A stretch of 25,632 nucleotides of DNA from an uncultured Methanosarcinales archaeon (GTDB lineage Archaea; Nanobdellota; Nanobdellia; Woesearchaeales; JAGWAF01), in the NCBI GenBank assembly GCA_964562875.1, contig CAZLVM010000001.1, positions 1-25,632 of the forward strand, in the 5' to 3' direction. The notes under the pieces were generated by a model that was given only the letters and a program-made list of their open reading frames with translations, was not told where the DNA came from and searched no databases. This document shows, piece after piece, positions 5,115 to 25,632 of the stretch (the stretch's first letter is position 1; every line of letters starts with the position of its first letter). Made by a program: the position numbers and the translations under genes.

Positions 5115-5208
5115 ACTCTTTTTTCCGTATTATTGGTATATAAGGTTTTCTATGAATATAAAAAACAAAAACCTTAATAAACAACCTAAAACACATTTTG
5201 TATTGCAT

Positions 5209-5298
5209 GTGCTCGTAGCCTAGCCTGGATAAGGCGTTAGCCTCCTACCATTTTTGGAAGAAAGCTAAAAATCCGGGGTTCGAATCCCCGCGGGCACG
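5209..5298 (+). tRNA. trnR: tRNA-Arg(CCU) with a 15-nt intron at the canonical 37/38 position (5248-5262)
   Basis: GTGCTCG TA GCCT AGCCTGGATA AGGC G TTAGC CT-CCT-A [CCATTTTTGGAAGAA] A GCTAA AAATC CGGGG TTCGAAT CCCCG CGGGCAC G. Mature length 75 nt, G discriminator, no CCA. Confidence 0.93.
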
Positions 5299-5400
5299 TT
5301 AGTGGCTGCGGCCTTCCAAACTTTGTTTGGATTTGCCGCGGGCACGTTAGTGGCTAAGGCTTTTTGAACTTTGTTCAAATTTGCCGCGGGCACGTTAGTG
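5288..5400 (+). repeat. Tandem 48-bp units: three copies of CCGCGGGCACGTTAGTG (tRNA 3' end plus trailer) separated by hairpin cassettes
   Basis: Copies start at 5288, 5336 and 5384. Hairpins TCCAAAC-TTT-GTTTGGA (5315-5331) and TTTGAAC-TTT-GTTCAAA (5363-5379). Confidence 0.95.
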
Positions 5401-14275: not shown

Positions 14276-14518
14276 TTACCCCCGTTTCCAGACAACAGCT
14301 CCTTTTTTCTTTACAATTCTTATTCTGTGCAGGGGAATCATTGCTTCTTCTTCACCCCGGTCAACAGCCATGAAACCTTCATCAATTCTTTTTATTTCTT
14401 CAAATTTAATCTCAATTATTTTTTTTAGAATTCTATCTTCATATCCTATTACATAATCAGAAGGATTTTCATTTTCATCCCATTTAATTTTGTTAATTAA
14501 CTCATGTATCGGTTGCAT
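14276..14518 (-). CDS. DUF504 / MJ1316-family protein (predicted RNA-end recognition)
   Basis: ELINKIKWD...YVIGYEDR...IPLHRIRIVKKKGAVVWKR matches the DUF504 (UPF0248) pattern. Confidence 0.85.
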   Translation of the reverse strand: MQPIHELINKIKWDENENPSDYVIGYEDRILKKIIEIKFEEIKRIDEGFMAVDRGEEEAMIPLHRIRIVKKKGAVVWKRG

Positions 14519-15798: not shown

Positions 15799-15852
15799 GG
15801 TTAAGAACTCAGGCCTTTTGGTATATAAATTTTGTTAAAGTTGGAGAAATCA

Positions 15853-15952
15853 TGCTGTTTGCACCAAGTAAATTACTAGTTTGGCTTATCTTTCTTTGTG
15901 TGATTCATTTTAGGGAGCAAAATCATAATAATCACGGAGCGTGCAAACAGCA
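15853..15952. repeat. Dispersed stem-closed element, copy D (divergent)
   Basis: Perfect 12-bp inverted repeat TGCTGTTTGCAC / GTGCAAACAGCA around a 76-nt interior with CAAGTAAATTAC, GTGTGATTCATTTT and CACGGAGC, matching the interiors of copies A-C. Confidence 0.8.
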
Positions 15953-15963
15953 CAGTTAAGAAA

Positions 15964-18258
15964 TCATCCAAAATAAGACGGCTTGTCTGCCTTCATTTCT
16001 TTTGCTTTTGCTGAAGAAAACTTGTCTTTGAGATCCTTGTACTCTTCTTCAATTTCTTTTGTTGCAGACGGCCTTACAATGCTGAAAGACTCATCAAAGT
16101 CAGCCATTGTAACTTCTTTTGCTTTGATATCTTTTCTTAGCGCGATTATTCCTGCTTCCCTGCATACTGCTTCTGTGTCTGCCCCCACATATCCTTCTGC
16201 TTTTTCAGCAAGTTTTGCAGCAGATACATCTTTTGCAAGAGGCATTCCCTTTAAGTGAATCTCAAATATTTTTTCTCTTGCTTTTTTGTCAGGCACAGAT
16301 GTTAGTATTATTCTGTCAAACCTTCCAGGCCTAAGCAGCGCAGTGTCAAGCATGTCCGGCCTATTTGTTGCAGCTATGATAACTATATCATTAAGCGCTT
16401 CAAGCCCGTCCATCTCTGTCAGCATTTGGTTAACTACTCTTTCTGTGACATGGGCATCTGAACTTGCGCTTCTCCTTGGCGCAAGCGAGTCTATCTCGTC
16501 AAAGAATATGATTGTTGGGGCTGTCTGCCTTGCCTTCTTAAAAATTTCCCTCACAGCCTTTTCACTTTCACCAACCCATTTTGAAAGCAGCTCAGGTCCT
16601 TTAACAAGTATGAAGTTTGATTCTGATTCAGTTGCAATTGCCTTTGCAAGCATTGTTTTCCCTGTTCCTGGAGCGCCGTAAAGTAAAATACCCTTTGGAG
16701 GCTTAACCCCTATTCTTTTGAAGATTTCAGGGTTTTTCAGAGGCCATTCAACAGCCTCTTTCAGCTGCTGCTTAACTTGGTCAAGCCCGCCAATCTGGCT
16801 CCACTTGACATTAGGCGACTCAATGAGCACTTCCCTTAATGCAGAAGGCCTTACAACCTTTAGTGATTCCTTGAAATCATCTCTTGTAATCTTTAGATTT
16901 TCAAGCACACTCTGAGGTATTGTATCTTCCTTGCCATACCTAAGATCGGGCAATAGCCGCCTTAGCACTACCATTGCAGCCTCTTTTGCCAGGCTCGCAA
17001 GGTCTGCCCCAACAAAGCCATGCGTTACTCTCGCTATCTCATTGAGATTTACATCCTTGTCAAGCGGCATATTTCTTGTGTGAATCTTAAGAACATTTTC
17101 CCTTCCTGTTTTGTCAGGAACGCCTATCTCTATCTCCCTGTCAAACCTTCCAGGCCTTCTCAATGCAGGGTCAAGTATGTTAGGCACGTTTGTTGCTGCA
17201 ATAACAACAATCTTTCCCCTGTTCTGCAGGCCGTCCATCAGCGAAAGCAGCTGGGCAACAACCCTTCTTTCAACTTCCCCTTTTGTCTCTTCCCTTTTTG
17301 ATGCTATTGCATCTATTTCGTCTATAAATATGATTGATGGAGCATTTTTTTCTGCATCTTCGAATATTTTTCTTAAGTTCTCTTCTGATTGACCGTAGAA
17401 CTTGCTCATGATTTCAGGGCCGTTGATAACAACAAAATGTGATGATGTTTCGTTTGCAACTGCTTTGGCAAGAAGTGTTTTTCCTGTTCCAGGAGGTCCG
17501 TGAAGCAGAACTCCTTTTGGAGGTTCTATGCCCAGTCTTTCAAACAGCTCGGGATGCTTCAATGGAAGCTCAACCATTTCCCTGATTTTTTTGACTTCAT
17601 CATGAAGCCCGCCTATGTCTTCATAGCTGACTTCGGGAATTGTCTCTTCCTTAACCTCAACTGCCTCTGGATTGAATACAATCTCTGTTTCATCGCTGAT
17701 TATGACTGCCTGTTTAGGGGTTGTTTCTGTAACAACAAATTTTATGTCTCCAAATCCAAACCCTATTCCGCCCATCATGCTTTCATCAAGCATTGAGAAT
17801 ATGTCGTCAAATGGACTGCCGCTCATGGTGCTTCTTCTTGTTCTTGTGCCTCCAAGGGATATGATGTCTCCCTTGATTACAGCTCTTCCAAGAAGCCCGT
17901 GTTTGAATACAGTTGGGGAAGCCTTAATCATGACGCTCTTTATTGCAGGGGCTATTATCACCTTCTTGGCTTCCTTTACATCAGACCTTCTTACTTTTAC
18001 CTGCTCGCCTATGGATGACTTGGCATTCCTTCGTGTGAGCCCGTCCATCCTTATTATACTAATTCCTATGTCTCCTGGATAGGCTCTGTCAACAATGGCT
18101 ACGCTTGTATTCTCCCCTTCAATTTCAACAATCTCGCCAGGTCTTGTGCCTATTTCTTTCATAAAATTAGAATCAATTCTAACAATGCCTTTATTTACAT
18201 CATCCTGGATTGCTTCAGCAACCTTCAGCTTTATTTCCTTTGATGATTTGGCTATCAT
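15964..18258 (-). CDS. cdc48: CDC48/VCP (VAT) AAA+ ATPase
   Basis: N-domain, two Walker A motifs ([16 protein letters not shown]), two Walker B motifs (IFIDEID, IFFDEID), RPGRFDR twice, C-terminal YFG. Confidence 0.98.
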
Positions 18259-20743: not shown

Positions 20744-21846
20744 AATCGGCAAAAACAAAATTCTATTCGTGGAAGGCAGGAGCCCTTGCAAAGGGATGCC
20801 AAATGTGCGTAAAAGGCGAAAAGATTGTGCTCTTCGCAACAGGCCTTTGCCCTAATAGGTGTTATTTCTGCCCTATCTCAGACAGTAAAAATGGGAAGGA
20901 TGATGTTTATGCAAATGAGTGGAAGATTAAGTCAGAAAAGGAAATCATAAAAGAAGCAGAGCTTTGCAGTGCAAAAGGCGCAGGCATAACAGGCGGAGAT
21001 CCTCTTGTAAAGCTGGATAGGGTTGTTGGGTATATCAATCTCCTAAAGAAAAGGTTTGGAAAGAAATTTCATATTCATCTTTATACTCCTCTTGAACTGG
21101 TAAATGAAAAAACACTGAAGCGGCTTTATGATGCAGGTCTTGACGAGATAAGGTTTCATCCTGACATTGAAGACCCTTCAAAATGGAACAGGCTTGAGCT
21201 TGCAAGAAAATTCAAATGGGATGTTGGAGTTGAAATCCCTTCAATTCCGGGAAAAGAAGAGCAAACAATGCAGCTGGTTGATTTCATAAAGGGAAAAGTA
21301 AATTTCCTTAACATAAATGAGCTTGAGATTTCTGACTCAAACGCAAACAATCTTGTGGAAAGAGGGTTCAAGTCTAAGGATAATATGTCTTATGCTGTTA
21401 AGGGGAGCGAGGAGCTTGCAAAAAAGATTCTAAAGTATGCTGCATCAAAGAATATCAATACTCATTATTGCACAGCTCAGCTAAAAGATAGGGTTCAGTT
21501 AAGAAAGAGAATTCTGAAGCGGGCAGAAAACGCTGCAAAAAAATATGATATTATCACAGAGGAGGGCATGCTCATAAGGGGGGCTGTATATCTCATGAAG
21601 CCGTCCTTTGGATACATGAGAAAGATTGAAAAGAAAAGAAAAATTCTCATCCCAAAACTGAAAAGAATAATGGAATCCCTCAACCTAAAAAACGCAGAGC
21701 TCGACCAGAGAAAGTGCAGGATACTCATGCATCCTGAAGACATTGAAAAGCTCTCGGATAAGTTAAAAGAAAAGGGACTAGTCCCTGCAATTGTTGAAGA
21801 GTATCCTACTTGGGATGCTCTCGAAGTCGAAATAGAATTCTTGTAG
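20740..21846 (+). CDS. Radical SAM protein of unknown function (COG2108-like archaeal family)
   Basis: CPNRCYFC (CxxxCxxC), GITGGDP, HIHLYT, DEIRFH, extra GCQMC. ATGA overlap with tatD. Confidence 0.9.
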   Translation: MKSAKTKFYSWKAGALAKGCQMCVKGEKIVLFATGLCPNRCYFCPISDSKNGKDDVYANEWKIKSEKEIIKEAELCSAKGAGITGGDPLVKLDRVVGYINLLKKRFGKKFHIHLYTPLELVNEKTLKRLYDAGLDEIRFHPDIEDPSKWNRLELARKFKWDVGVEIPSIPGKEEQTMQLVDFIKGKVNFLNINELEISDSNANNLVERGFKSKDNMSYAVKGSEELAKKILKYAASKNINTHYCTAQLKDRVQLRKRILKRAENAAKKYDIITEEGMLIRGAVYLMKPSFGYMRKIEKKRKILIPKLKRIMESLNLKNAELDQRKCRILMHPEDIEKLSDKLKEKGLVPAIVEEYPTWDALEVEIEFL

Positions 21847-21858
21847 AAAAATAGGCTG

Positions 21859-22031
21859 TTGCCACCAAGCTAATAAGAGCCAATGCTGCCCAGCAAACAA
21901 GAGTCATTGCCACCCAGCGAAGTACTTAATCTAAAGATTGTTTAACACGTGGGACTCCTTTGAAGAAGAAATAAAATATCAACACGTAGCGTGGCAATGA
22001 CTCAGAACTATTTTATCACAAAGCGTGGCAA
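21859..22031. repeat. Degenerate outer shell of the dispersed element, enclosing copy A
   Basis: TTGCCAC-CAAGC at 21859-21870 and AGC-GTGGCAA at 22022-22031. A second left arm AGCCAATGCTGC at 21878-21889 is identical to the copy-C left arm. Confidence 0.75.
21901..22003. repeat. Dispersed stem-closed element, copy A
   Basis: 13-bp inverted repeat GAGTCATTGCCAC / GTGGCAATGACTC around a 77-nt interior CCAGCGAAGTAC...ACGTGGGACTCCTTT...CACGTAGC. Confidence 0.9.
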
Positions 22032-22037
22032 TTGCCT

Positions 22038-22133
22038 CCATTGCCACCTAGCGAAGTACACAATCTAAACATTCTTCTGCACGTGACTCCTTTCAGGAAG
22101 CATGAATAAAAGCAGCACGAAGCGTGGCAATGG
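22038..22133. repeat. Dispersed stem-closed element, copy B
   Basis: 10-bp inverted repeat CCATTGCCAC / GTGGCAATGG around a 76-nt interior CTAGCGAAGTAC...ACGTGACTCCTTT...CACGAAGC. Confidence 0.9.
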
Positions 22134-22171
22134 TAGAAAAATATTTATACTATGCTTCTTAAAATTAAAGC

Positions 22172-22483
22172 ATGAAAATAACTATAGACACAAAAGAGGA
22201 TTCAAAAGAGGAAATCAAGAAGGCAATAAGTTTCCTTTCATCTCTTAGCGACGGAACTATCTATACAAACTGTGCAAATAATGAAAAGCCTTCCCATCAA
22301 AAGGATATATTTTCGGATGACCCATCACCTGAAGTGGGGGGAGGAATGTTCAGCATGTTTGGCAGCTCTTCATCTCCAGCCCAGGATTCTCCGTCAGATT
22401 CTTCTGCTGAAACAACAGTAGTTCTGGAAGAGGAAAAGAAAGAGCCTAAAAAAAAGCCTGAAATACAGGTAATTGAGTATTAA
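22172..22483 (+). CDS. Hypothetical protein, 103 aa, with low-complexity S/D/P/E middle
   Basis: TTTATAC at 22144-22150 upstream; 1-nt gap to archease, so it is the first gene of the archease-rtcB operon. Confidence 0.8.
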   Translation: MKITIDTKEDSKEEIKKAISFLSSLSDGTIYTNCANNEKPSHQKDIFSDDPSPEVGGGMFSMFGSSSSPAQDSPSDSSAETTVVLEEEKKEPKKKPEIQVIEY

Positions 22484-22484
22484 G

Positions 22485-22916
22485 ATGAAACAATACGAGT
22501 TTCTAGAGCACACTGCAGACGCCAAGTTTAAGGCTTATGGAAATGATTTTGGAGAGGCATTTTCAAACGCTGCAAAGGCTATGGTTTCACTGATGTATGA
22601 TTCTGAACTTGTTGCAGCATCTCACATAGAGGAGATAAAAGCTGAAGGCAAGGACATGGGCCAGCTTCTTTACAAGTTTCTTGAGGAATTTCTTTTTCTG
22701 CAGGATTCAAAGCAGTTTGTGCTTCACGGCTTTCCAAAGGAAATAAAGATAATGGAATCAAAAGGAAAATTCTCGCTGAAGGCAGAAGCCACCGGAGACT
22801 ATCTTGACAAGACAGATGAAAAATATGAGGTAAGCCCTGTTGTCAAGGCAGTAACTTACAATGAAATGAAAATAAGCGAAAAACCTTTATATGTGCAGGT
22901 AGTTCTTGACATCTAA
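22485..22916 (+). CDS. Archease (RtcB cofactor)
   Basis: YEFLEHTADAKFKAYG N-terminus, VKAVTYNEM, C-terminal VVLDI; adjacent to rtcB. Confidence 0.93.
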   Translation: MKQYEFLEHTADAKFKAYGNDFGEAFSNAAKAMVSLMYDSELVAASHIEEIKAEGKDMGQLLYKFLEEFLFLQDSKQFVLHGFPKEIKIMESKGKFSLKAEATGDYLDKTDEKYEVSPVVKAVTYNEMKISEKPLYVQVVLDI

Positions 22917-24346
22917 TGGAAAAGGTTGAGCTTGAGAAAGAGAGCGAATTTGTTTGGAAAATTCCAAAAACTGGCTCTATGAATGTTCCTGCAGTAGTTT
23001 ATGCTTCTGACAAGCTTATGGAAAACATAAAGCAGGATTTGACTCTTCAGCAGATAAGGAATGTGGCGTGCCTTAAGGGAATACAGAAGAATGCTATTGC
23101 GCTTCCTGACTCCCACCAGGGATATGGGTTTAACATAGGCGGTGTAGCTGCCTTTGACATGAACGAAGGAGTGATTTCTCCAGGCGGAGTTGGCTATGAC
23201 ATCAACTGCGGAGTAAGGATGCTCAGGACTGACATGACTGCAGATGAGCTTTTGAAAAAAAAGAATGAAATTATTGAGGAGTTGTTCAAGGAGATACCTG
23301 CAGGTGTTGGAAAGGGCGGTTCTACAAAGTTAACAAAGGATAGTCTTATGGAAGCTCTTGAAAAAGGTCCTGAGTGGGCTCTCAAGGAAGGCTATGGTAA
23401 AAAAGAAGACTTGGAAAGAACAGAAGAAGATGGAAGAATGAAGGACGCTGATCCTTCAAAGGTTTCCCAGAGGGCAATTGCAAGGGGAATGCCTCAGCTG
23501 GGGACATTGGGAGCTGGAAATCATTTTATTGAGCTTCAGAAAGTTGACAAAATCTATGACGAGAAAGTTGCAAAGGCGTTTGGCATAGAAAAGGAAGGCC
23601 AGGTTACAATGATGATTCACTGCGGAAGCAGGGGCTTGGGCCATCAGGTTGCTTCTGATTATATTCAGTCAATGGAAAACAAGTTTGGCATAGAAGGCCT
23701 GCCTGACAGGGAGCTAATCAACGCTCCAATACAATCAGATCTTGGTCAGGATTATTACAAGGCAATGTGCTGTGCAATAAATTATGCTTTTGCAAACAGG
23801 CATTTGATAATGCACTGGGCAAGGGAAAGCTTTGAAAAAATATTTGGTTCTTCAGATGGCATGGACATGATATATGATGTCTGTCATAACATTGCAAAGT
23901 TTGAGAATCATGAGATTGACGGCAAGAAAACAAAGGTTTGCATTCATAGAAAGGGCGCAACAAGAAGCTTTGGCCCTGGAAGGGAAGAAATTCCTGATGT
24001 TTATAGAAATGTTGGCCAGCCTGTCATAATTCCCGGAAGCATGGGCACTGCATCATACCTTCTTGTAGGTACAAAAAAGGCAGAGGAGCTTTCGTTTGGA
24101 AGCACTGCTCACGGCGCAGGAAGGCTGTTGTCAAGGCATGCTGCAATGAGATTAAAGAGGGGAGAGCAGGTTAAGAAAGACCTTGAGGCAAAGGGAATTA
24201 CTGTCAAGGGAGCATCAATGAAAGGCCTTGCAGAGGAAATGCCTGAAGCCTACAAGGATATTGATGAGGTTGTTCGTGTTTCTGACTCTCTTGGTCTTGC
24301 AAAAAAAGTGGCAAGAGTTGTTCCTTTAGAAGTAATCAAGGGTTAA
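22916..24346 (+). CDS. rtcB: tRNA-splicing ligase RtcB
   Basis: PDSHQGYGF, GYDINCG, GAGNHFIE, HCGSRGLGH, DVCHNIAK, HRKGATR, STAHGAGR. TAATG coupling to archease. Confidence 0.98.
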   Translation: MEKVELEKESEFVWKIPKTGSMNVPAVVYASDKLMENIKQDLTLQQIRNVACLKGIQKNAIALPDSHQGYGFNIGGVAAFDMNEGVISPGGVGYDINCGVRMLRTDMTADELLKKKNEIIEELFKEIPAGVGKGGSTKLTKDSLMEALEKGPEWALKEGYGKKEDLERTEEDGRMKDADPSKVSQRAIARGMPQLGTLGAGNHFIELQKVDKIYDEKVAKAFGIEKEGQVTMMIHCGSRGLGHQVASDYIQSMENKFGIEGLPDRELINAPIQSDLGQDYYKAMCCAINYAFANRHLIMHWARESFEKIFGSSDGMDMIYDVCHNIAKFENHEIDGKKTKVCIHRKGATRSFGPGREEIPDVYRNVGQPVIIPGSMGTASYLLVGTKKAEELSFGSTAHGAGRLLSRHAAMRLKRGEQVKKDLEAKGITVKGASMKGLAEEMPEAYKDIDEVVRVSDSLGLAKKVARVVPLEVIKG

Positions 24347-24945
24347 ATCTCAATAATTTTTCCTTTCTTTCCAACATTGATGACTTTTGTTTTCCCAATC
24401 TTTTCTTCAATGCCTTCTGCTTCATGAACATGGGAGCAGAGCATTATGTCCGGCTTAAACTTGTCAATAGCCTTTCTTATGCCTTCTGAACCTGGAAAGA
24501 ATGATGTGAACTTTTCCATCTTTGTTCCTGTTGGATGCACGTGAGTTACCATTATTGTCTTTTTTGCTTTCTTTACTCCTTTGTATCCCTGTTCTATCAG
24601 CTTGAAAATTTCATCTTCGCTCAGCTGGAACAAGCCTATGTTTGCGCCGCCAGCTCCAAAAAGACCGACATCGCCTGCCATTATTGAGTATCCATGCAGG
24701 TTTGTTGCGCCGTAAAGCTCTGCAAGAAAGTCTGCTGTTGCAACAGTCTCATGGTTTCCTGGAATCAGAACTACTTTTTCTCCTAGCTTTACGAAAGGTC
24801 CGATTATTCCTGCTGTAGAAGCTTCTGCCATTGTCAGGTCTCCGCAAAGGACAACTAAGTCAACCTTTTCCTTCTTTGCCCGTTCTGCCAGTTTCTTGGC
24901 AAGGCCTGTATCGCCGTGTATATCTCCGGCTGCAAGTATTTTCAT
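24343..24945 (-). CDS. Calcineurin-like metallophosphoesterase
   Basis: GDIHGD, CGDL, PGNHE, VTHVHP, CSHVHE, VINVG. ATG 24945 with upstream AGGTG RBS preferred over the GTG at 24954. Confidence 0.92.
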   Translation of the reverse strand: MKILAAGDIHGDTGLAKKLAERAKKEKVDLVVLCGDLTMAEASTAGIIGPFVKLGEKVVLIPGNHETVATADFLAELYGATNLHGYSIMAGDVGLFGAGGANIGLFQLSEDEIFKLIEQGYKGVKKAKKTIMVTHVHPTGTKMEKFTSFFPGSEGIRKAIDKFKPDIMLCSHVHEAEGIEEKIGKTKVINVGKKGKIIEI

Positions 24946-25019
24946 TTTATGCACCTTTGCAGATGGAGGCTTTCAAAATTCCTGATTTTGAATTGTCGCC
25001 GGCTGCAAGTATTTTCATT
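24926..25019. repeat. 21-bp direct repeat (24926-24946 and 24999-25019) of the phosphoesterase start, flanking a hairpin cassette
   Basis: CCGGCTGCAAGTATTTTCATT occurs twice, 73 bp apart. Internal hairpin TTCAAAAT-TCCTG-ATTTTGAA at 24972-24992. Confidence 0.9.
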
Positions 25020-25092
25020 GTAAGAAATCATAAGGAATATGCCTTTAAAAAGCTTTGCGGTAAACTAAGAATTAAATTACCTTAATTTAAGG

Positions 25093-25248
25093 CATTGCCA
25101 CCAAGCGAAGAATAGCCAATGCTGCCAAGCGAAGTACTGTCTTTAAACATTAATTTCTGCGTGTGACTCCTTTTTAGAATAAATAACACCATTAACACGG
25201 AGCGCAGAATTGGCTAAAAAAAGAACAAAAACACAGAGCGTGGCAATG
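25093..25248. repeat. Outer shell of the dispersed element, enclosing copy C
   Basis: CATTGCCAC-CAAGCGAAG at 25093-25110 and AGC-GTGGCAATG at 25237-25248. Confidence 0.85.
25114..25215. repeat. Dispersed stem-closed element, copy C
   Basis: 11/12-bp inverted repeat AGCCAATGCTGC / GCAGAATTGGCT around a 78-nt interior CAAGCGAAGTAC...GTGTGACTCCTTT...CACGGAGC. Confidence 0.9.
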
Positions 25249-25250
25249 GC

Positions 25251-25632
25251 TTACCTTGCCTTAACCCTTACTTCTTCGCCTTCGAGATGGACAATTGTTG
25301 AGGGCTTTCCTTTTTTTTCTCCCTCGTAAATTGCAAAGTCAATATTTGCTTTTAGGTCATGGTGCAAATCATCAACAGATGTCATGTTGTTTCCGCCGGT
25401 TTTGTTTGCTGATGTTGTGACAATTGGAATATTAAGCTCTTCAGCAACTTTTGAGAACCAGTGTTCTGGAATTCTTATCCCCACGCTGTCCATGCCCATG
25501 TTTACCTGCTTTGCAATAGCGCTTTTATTTTTCAGTTTCATGATGAGTGTGTATGGTCCTGGAAGTTTTTCAATCCATTCTTCTGCATCTTCTGTCATCT
25601 CGCAGTTTTCCCTAATCCACTCTTTGGAAGGC
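25251..25632 (-). CDS. tsaC: L-threonylcarbamoyladenylate synthase, YrdC/TsaC type (5' part outside the window)
   Basis: LPGPYTLI, SVGIRIP, PIVTTSAN, GKPSTIV. The protein ends right after the YrdC domain, with no Sua5 C-terminal extension. Confidence 0.92.
   Translation of the reverse strand, partial: PSKEWIRENCEMTEDAEEWIEKLPGPYTLIMKLKNKSAIAKQVNMGMDSVGIRIPEHWFSKVAEELNIPIVTTSANKTGGNNMTSVDDLHHDLKANIDFAIYEGEKKGKPSTIVHLEGEEVRVKAR

Follow-up and report, generated by a model that had tools for sequence, protein, structure and literature searches.

Nested and tandem copies of a candidate MITE-like element family in Woesearchaeota-like archaea

The genomes of DPANN archaea are very small and densely packed with genes, and apart from automated counts their mobile DNA has hardly been described. 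The closest described systems to the repeats reported here are the prokaryotic MITEs (the Correia elements of Neisseria, the ERIC/IRU elements of enterobacteria and the archaeal MITEs of PMC11602168): non-coding, intergenic units of about 100 nt with terminal inverted repeats, many dispersed copies, flanking direct repeats, presence/absence polymorphism and occasional nesting or multimers. An automated census with MITE-Tracker already reports a Woesearchaeal genome with a high density of MITEs, ∼105 per Mb (PMC11602168). The family described here was found in a 25,632-nt stretch of an archaeal chromosome of ∼39% GC (the window). It shares these features, with flanking direct repeats at some of its loci, but differs from the known MITEs in several respects: its arms are variable yet complementary, its most conserved parts are subterminal unpaired motifs, its flanking repeats vary in length (7-11 nt), its copies have one orientation per contig, full copies lie within shells that consist of ends only, and it has no known parent insertion sequence.

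Other hairpin systems resemble the family in part. The REP/REPIN sequences associated with RAYT enzymes (Y1 HUH) are likewise ∼100-nt intergenic hairpin repeats in ordered arrays, presumed to be mobilised in trans by a single-copy enzyme. However, the family has no GTAG-type 5' tetranucleotide, its ends in the window reading CATTGCC.., GCTGTT.. and AGCCAA..; its halves are not inverted copies of each other beyond the arms of 9-12 nt, and it has flanking direct repeats. No RAYT gene was seen in the 25.6-kb window. Integron attC sites share with the family an imperfect hairpin in which the fold counts over the stem sequence, conserved unpaired or extrahelical positions near the stem base, a similar length range and uniform orientation. 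In contrast to attC, none of the arm types contains RYYYAAC/GTTRRRY cores, the centre is conserved instead of variable, and flanking direct repeats are present. The window contains neither a cassette array nor an integrase, and the copies are separated by housekeeping genes of either strand (CDC48, DHS, TatD, archease, RtcB). The PATE elements derived from IS200/IS605 have separate subterminal hairpins and insert 3' of a fixed tetra- or pentanucleotide with no duplication, whereas the ends of our family pair with each other, its left flanks have no common motif and several loci have flanking direct repeats. Palindrome-targeting insertion sequences give a parallel to the nesting: IS1397 and ISKpn1 insert into the loops of REP sequences and IS1111-type elements into attC. 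There, too, layered structures arise through a mobile element that prefers the hairpins of resident repeats as landing sites, but in our case invader and target belong to one non-autonomous family and the interior of the target is lost. A relationship to IS1 was considered and rejected: copy C has ATGCTGCCAA at its left end in common with the IS1 IRL, but only one of 14 end comparisons reached p∼0.009, which is non-significant after correction.

The window encodes GatD/GatE, CDC48, deoxyhypusine synthase, TatD, archease and RtcB, Sua5 and a tRNA-Gly with an intron. Among named sequences, its radical-SAM protein is closest to homologues from Candidatus Woesearchaeota (∼60% identity), and the host is therefore a DPANN, Woesearchaeota-like archaeon. 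Exact look-ups of three proteins of the window gave no match, probably owing to differently called starts.

Repeat finding and reading of the sequence revealed four full copies of the element in the window (D, A, B and C), every one on the + strand, and three shells (O1, S and O2), each consisting of a left and a right end fragment of ∼20 nt around full copies (Table 1). The shell-enclosed spans are 21854-22036 at locus 1, with two layers, and 25093-25248 at locus 2. The element is non-coding and hairpin-ended, 94-95 nt long and up to 102 nt where the arms are longer. Its left side is composed of a left arm (9-12 nt), C-N-AGCGAAGTAC and a T-rich linker of ∼22 nt; on the right side follow CACGTGACTCCTTT, an A-rich stretch of ∼22 nt, CACG-N-AGC and a right arm complementary to the left one. 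Copy D had not been mentioned in the first-pass annotation of the window. Together with a second genome described below, the family comprises 13 full copies at 9 loci in ∼110 kb, with tightly fixed length. Full copies are recovered by nhmmer with E values of 6e-17 to 1e-22, and matches to the shells are confined to the first 18-20 and last 18-21 positions of the model (1-18, 74-94). Diagnostic 11-13-mers occur 2-4 times each against 0.00-0.01 expected: TTGCCACCAAGC and AGCCAATGCTGCC exactly twice each (0.01 and 0.00 expected), and AGCGTGGCAAT four times (0.01 expected). At locus 1 the former two start at 21859 and 21878, respectively, and the outer right end reads CACAAAGC+GTGGCAAT (22017-22032); the outer arms of this locus are better taken as 12 nt, GGCTGTTGCCAC at 21854-21865 and GTGGCAATTGCC at 22025-22036.

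Table 1. Positions of element copies, shell ends and flanking direct repeats in the window
Feature	Position	Strand	Remarks
Copy D, left 9-nt direct repeat AGAAATCAT	15845-15853		right copy 15959-15967, includes CDC48 stop codon; p∼0.003
Full copy D, most divergent; 12-bp arms TGCTGTTTGCAC/GTGCAAACAGCA	15853-15952	+	nhmmer E=6e-17
Locus 1, left 11-nt direct repeat GTAGAAAAATA	21843-21853		exact; holds radical-SAM stop codon; abuts outer left arm; p∼0.0002
Locus 1, outer shell O1, left end: arm GGCTGTTGCCAC + decayed motif CAAGCTAATAAG	21854-21877	+
Locus 1, second shell S, left end: arm AGCCAATGCTGC, the same as in copy C, + CCAGCAAACAAGAGT	21878-21904	+
Locus 1, full copy A, 95 nt, innermost layer	21905-21999	+
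Locus 1, shell S, right arm, degenerate remnant ACTCAGAACTATTT (cf. AGCGCAGAATTGGCT in copy C)	22000-22013	+	by eye; gapped global alignment consistent; weak
Locus 1, outer shell O1, right end: CACAAAGC + arm GTGGCAATTGCC	22017-22036	+	nhmmer model 74-93
Locus 1, full copy B (94 nt); spacer TC (2 nt) between O1 and B, which lie head-to-tail	22039-22132	+	nhmmer
Locus 1, right 11-nt direct repeat GTAGAAAAATA	22133-22143		abuts copy B right arm
Locus 2, left 7-nt direct repeat TTACCTT	25077-25083		right copy 25251-25257, includes Sua5 stop codon; p∼0.017
Locus 2, outer shell O2, left end: arm CATTGCCAC (25093-25101) + motif CAAGCGAAGAAT (25102-25113)	25093-25113	+	nhmmer model 1-18
Locus 2, full copy C, 102 nt; arms AGCCAATGCTGC/GCAGAATTGGCT, 11/12 paired	25114-25215	+	nhmmer
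Locus 2, outer shell O2, right end: A-rich 16 nt, CACAGAGC (25232-25239), arm GTGGCAATG (25240-25248)	25216-25248	+	nhmmer model 77-94

The motif blocks are 89-93% conserved, against 69-72% in the linkers, and the unpaired motifs beside the arms (92-93%) are the best conserved part of the element. The arms vary in sequence among copies and keep their complementarity: across 12 copies 95.6% of the cells in arms of 9-12 bp are paired, and changes occurred on both sides in 8 of the 12 pairs. Copies across both genomes differ by 12-45%. The single-strand folds of the nested loci are the expected two-tier hairpins, in which the same geometry (a stem, a 3-nt bulge C-N-A and a GC/GC pair) appears in every layer. 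Fold z-scores of the element range from -1.3 to -2.7, and RNAalifold together with explicit pair counts gives no supported pairing beyond the terminal stem. The candidate inner helix CGUG/CACG is invariant in all copies and therefore uninformative on pairing. Reading of both strands revealed no conserved frame in the element, as frames shift between copies, and no Pfam-bearing ORF overlaps any copy. A coding role was rejected: a minus-strand SD-like AAAGGAG followed by GTG opens frames of 5-14 codons that differ between copies.

All loci of one contig share their orientation whatever the strand of the genes (three of three in the window, two of two on each of the contigs L215 and L008 of the second genome; chance ∼1/16). 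The copies cluster with their own kind far above chance: of the 13 full copies, 10 belong to nested or tandem groups or have end fragments as immediate neighbours. Dimers in head-to-tail arrangement, their ends 0-2 nt apart, are common (O1-TC-B in the window; L215a/b; L008b with a truncated copy), and one free 5' fragment of 30 nt occurs with no nesting at L008 1248-1219.

Empty sites in relatives and flanking direct repeats show that the elements inserted into intergenic DNA, for the most part shortly after a stop codon. Short empty spacers were found in relatives at three occupied sites. When the inserted block and one repeat are removed from locus 1, 35 nt remain between the stop codon and the next ATG, and the corresponding spacer of an 80%-identical ortholog measures 36 nt; the reconstructed empty site reads ...CTTGTAGAAAAATATTTATAC.... 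The TrmB-PheS spacer has 419 nt, with a nested array of elements, in contig L141 of the second genome and 73 nt, empty, in the syntenic 72% relative L144. The metallophosphoesterase-Sua5 spacer that holds locus 2 measures 305 nt in the window; its counterpart in the syntenic L220, where 21 kb gave no family match, measures 63 nt. There are no family copies in the syntenic stretches of these two relatives (L144, 72%; L220, 61%). Of the nine loci tested, four have significant flanking direct repeats: 11 nt at locus 1, 9 nt at copy D, 9 nt on contig L001 and 7 nt at locus 2. At all three window loci the repeat takes in the stop codon of the neighbouring gene. Their length thus varies from 7 to 11 nt, five loci have no significant repeat, and at three loci the repeats are offset by 2-21 nt from an arm. 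At L215c the sequence ATCTTTA lies at or ≤1 nt from both arms by eye, whereas the automated test there was non-significant.

Seven Logan contigs with a 72%-identical ortholog of the radical-SAM gene (L134-L140) all end exactly 93 nt past its stop codon. The shared endpoint suggests a repeat or strain breakpoint; the 93 nt themselves contain no family copy.

The first-pass annotation had described an outer arm pair enclosing the complete copy C at 25093-25248, and all features of this description were found, with slightly refined coordinates. For locus 1 it had listed an outer pair, a second left arm, copy A and then copy B: the layers are as described, but copy B follows after 2 nt (TC), not 6 nt. 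From this arrangement it had been proposed that new copies insert into resident ones shortly after the AGCGAAG motif. Mobile insertion, clustering with own kind and layering are all borne out by our data, but a fixed target is not established: the window has only two independent junctions after AGCGAAG (+12 and +15), and a junction in the second genome lies at +38. Nor can the two loci be read as separate insertion events at this motif. The left ends of O1 and S, taken together, are ∼80% identical to those of O2 and C, with an identical junction 12 nt after the arm and with different flanks, and the nested loci 1 and 2 align end to end as wholes, each with its own flanking repeat. The identity, the common internal junction and the separate flanking repeats indicate that one nested composite was copied as a unit, in agreement with the alternative raised at the same time, that of a single nested unit duplicated and then altered at locus 1. 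The nested unit and the tandem dimer each recur as composites at separate sites. Since the composite was copied as a unit to a second site, its outer ends alone (left ∼21-24 nt, right 17-33 nt) appear to have sufficed for mobilisation.

The idea that the nests form a layered record agrees with the decay of the shells, whose motifs are intact at 6-8/10 against 9-10/10 in the inner copies, as expected if the outside is older. The shells, however, have no interiors: they keep ∼20 nt per end and have lost the central CACGTGACTCC block, so that ∼40-60 nt of interior are missing. No free-standing short forms consisting of ends only, which could have served as hosts, were found in ∼110 kb. Together this argues that the nests are not plain insertions into intact copies. 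They may have arisen by insertion with loss of the host interior, or by deletion within head-to-tail arrays.

A three-motif pattern scan of 185,579 species genomes gave real matches in one MAG alone, GCA_964414985.1, where they lie on four contigs (L001, L004/L215, L007/L141 and L008). The MAG is deposited as 'uncultured Methanosarcinales archaeon'. The nearest named relatives of its PheS-alpha and PRC-barrel proteins belong to Candidatus Woesearchaeota (72% and 67%), and judging from these genes the Methanosarcinales label is probably wrong. Sharing of the family between a DPANN archaeon and a methanogen host was rejected for the same reason: the PheS and PRC-barrel proteins of the MAG are Woesearchaeota-like. 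Viral or plasmid carriage was also rejected, as scans of IMG/VR gave chance matches only; scans of JGI metagenome contigs likewise returned chance matches and no real family copy. Copies within the MAG are 71-88% identical and have the terminal inverted repeat GCATTGCCGC/GCGGCAATGC. Nested and tandem arrangements are present here as well, but with other junctions: one nest consists of a degenerate shell around two copies with the junction at +38, and several further junctions are head-to-tail. A dimer of a subfamily-1 and a subfamily-2 copy recurs at L215 and L141, and tandem dimers of the MAG are reproduced by Logan contigs from other runs. At another locus degenerate shells are stacked around a different hairpin element.

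This different element, ∼145 nt long and enclosed by degenerate main-family shells, lies at L008 3575-3720 on the - strand (ATTGCCTTGCTCCAAAACTC ... GAGTTTTGGCCTTAAGCAAGGCAAT). The CCTTAAGC and arm that form its right end recur in the outer shell of L141, and the element suggests a second related family. At L215 8031-8060, directly after the tandem dimer, AGCTAATGCTGC-TTAGCT matches the AGCCAATGCTGC arm type of the window at 11 of 12 positions, which means that this arm type is present as a fragment in the second genome too.

With moderate confidence we regard the repeats as a new family of MITE-like, non-autonomous mobile DNA elements in Woesearchaeota-like DPANN archaea. We file them as MITEs because they are short, non-coding, dispersed and polymorphic, have inverted-repeat ends and probably duplicate their target. 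A trans-acting enzyme would recognise ∼20 nt at each end (the arm and the adjacent motif) and make staggered cuts in the target, and any pair of correctly oriented ends could be mobilised; composites would then spread as units, and shells reduced to their ends would persist around younger copies. Under such a mechanism the nests of the window would represent one ancestral composite, a CATTGCCAC-type shell around a AGCCAATGCTGC-type element, at two sites, and locus 1 would subsequently have gained the inner copy A inside shell S (junction +15) and the adjacent copy B. The recurrence of nested and dimeric composites at separate sites suggests that ∼20 nt per end suffice for the copying of a unit. 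Searches of the 25.6-kb window revealed no transposase, integrase or reverse transcriptase, and an autonomous partner with the same ends was found neither there nor in the examined loci of the MAG. The family shows that DPANN genomes tolerate repeated insertions exactly at gene ends. Its repeats break short-read assemblies of Woesearchaeota, and could serve as lineage markers.

Several features are atypical of a MITE: arms that vary and remain complementary, conserved unpaired motifs, repeats of variable length or offset position, and one orientation per contig. A single DDE transposase normally makes duplications of fixed length. Variable arms next to conserved unpaired motifs are the opposite of the classical MITE pattern and are more typical of elements recognised as folded single strands. 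These features keep alive the possibility, in our view an unlikely one, that the family is a single-stranded DNA element recognised by structure, whose hairpin and unpaired motifs would be the substrate of an HUH recombinase (IS200/IS605- or RAYT-like) or of a tyrosine recombinase (integron-like), with resident hairpins as targets. The co-varying arms (8 of 12 pairs), the 92-93% conservation of the flanking unpaired motifs, the single geometry of stem, C-N-A bulge and GC/GC pair in every nested layer, the uniform orientation per contig independent of gene strand and the strong preference for landing in or beside resident hairpins are all in its favour. The significant flanking direct repeats, including the exact 11-mer that abuts both ends of locus 1, argue against it; to our knowledge, such repeats are not made by HUH or integron-type reactions. 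Furthermore, the flanks read in the window and the MAG loci have no conserved target of 4-5 nt 5' of the left ends, RYYYAAC/GTTRRRY cores and GTAG are absent, and no HUH or tyrosine enzyme is encoded in the window.

No more probable, by our estimate, is a mobile hairpin defined by structure as such, that is, by any complementary stem with a conserved asymmetric loop (C-N-A / GC-GAAGUAC ... CACG-N-AGC). Its folded strand, DNA or RNA, would be recognised by a novel DPANN recombinase or retro-mobilising enzyme and would home into resident hairpins. We keep this reading open because the arms covary, unpaired motifs are conserved, orientation is uniform within contigs, the flanking repeats vary and host copies have repeatedly lost their interiors. 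If true, recognition of structure would point towards an archaeal single-strand recombination system that has gone unrecognised, and the nested loci would be a true stratigraphic record of successive events.

A slightly lower chance is given to the nesting being only apparent. Copies would first have formed head-to-tail arrays; internal deletions of the 3' part of one copy and of the 5' part of another would then leave an intact copy between two end fragments, and no element would have inserted into another. Such arrays exist, as the frequent dimers with 0-2 nt between their ends demonstrate; the un-nested 30-nt 5' fragment on L008 and the restriction of shells to their ends would also fit. 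Yet two precisely placed deletions would be needed for each nest, and at several loci. Moreover, the outer ends pair mutually and have another arm type (CATTGCCAC) than the copy that they enclose (AGCCAATGCTGC), and the stronger decay of the shell motifs fits a difference in age, not array members of the same age.

It is improbable that the repeats are a multi-copy family of structured non-coding RNA genes with a terminal stem and possibly a k-turn-like protein-binding loop (GC-GAA-G.. opposite ..N-A-GC), spread by duplication or retro-insertion, in which the extra layers would be duplicated stems. The fixed length, the covarying closing helix and loop motifs conserved across two genomes whose copies differ by 12-45% are what such a family would show; variable flanking repeats would suit target-primed insertion, and AGCGAAGAA/GGAGC presumably resembles the strands of the Kt-7 k-turn. 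Nevertheless, Rfam has no match at E≤1, RNAalifold supports only the terminal stem, fold z-scores are just -1.3 to -2.7, and position 2b of the would-be k-turn is an invariant U, not A. The copies have no consistent orientation to neighbouring genes, no promoter evidence and no reverse transcriptase nearby, and their absence from close relatives is unexpected for a housekeeping RNA. The Rfam search of the window at E≤1 returned two tRNAs only, and at the gathering score 55 kb of MAG loci gave no Rfam match.

Known RNA motifs were also compared by eye, and BHB introns, k-turns, H/ACA, hammerhead and hairpin-ribozyme motifs misfit. A BHB consists of a 3-nt bulge, a 4-bp helix and a 3-nt bulge, and a k-turn of a 3-nt bulge followed by tandem G.A/A.G pairs. 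In the element only two Watson-Crick pairs (GC/GC) follow the C-N-A bulge, with no second bulge in register.

That an assembler mis-joined repeats into false nests, a concern raised in the first-pass annotation, is hardly credible: the repeats do often interrupt short-read contigs of the same organisms (L142, L143 and L216 stop within arrays) and assembly support for locus 2 comes from the window contig only, contig L009 stopping at window position 25049, but the independently assembled JGI contig L133 contains the whole of locus 1 with its nesting, base for base apart from 3 SNPs, which shows that this locus is no artefact, the second genome has the same architecture, and k-mer collapse would not produce layers that differ in arm sequence and have unique junctions.

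Three further observations concern the surroundings of the repeats. The tRNA-Gly(TCC) gene at 5208-5374 of the window has a 17-nt intron, and its 3' end with 28 downstream nucleotides (5279-5326) is directly repeated at 5327-5374 with 79% identity, which looks like an attachment-site remnant of an integrated element. Genes for RNA ligation and repair, namely an MJ1316 RNA-cyclic-end-recognition domain protein, archease and RtcB, lie amid the repeat loci (14276-14518 and 22473-24346), probably a coincidence of core archaeal genes. Finally, another small insertion, this one with a long duplication, lies in the spacer that holds locus 2 (24926-25019). The sequence CCGGCTGCAAGTATTTTCATT forms a perfect direct repeat of 21 nt (24926-24946 and 24999-25019) that duplicates the beginning of the metallophosphoesterase gene, its start codon and first six codons, and the two repeat copies flank a 52-nt insert with the hairpin TTCAAAAT..ATTTTGAA. 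A conserved promoter-like box, AAAAAGCTTTGC (∼25046), has the correct spacing only from the upstream copy of the repeat, which would create a potential leader ORF of 23 codons that ends where the metallophosphoesterase actually starts.
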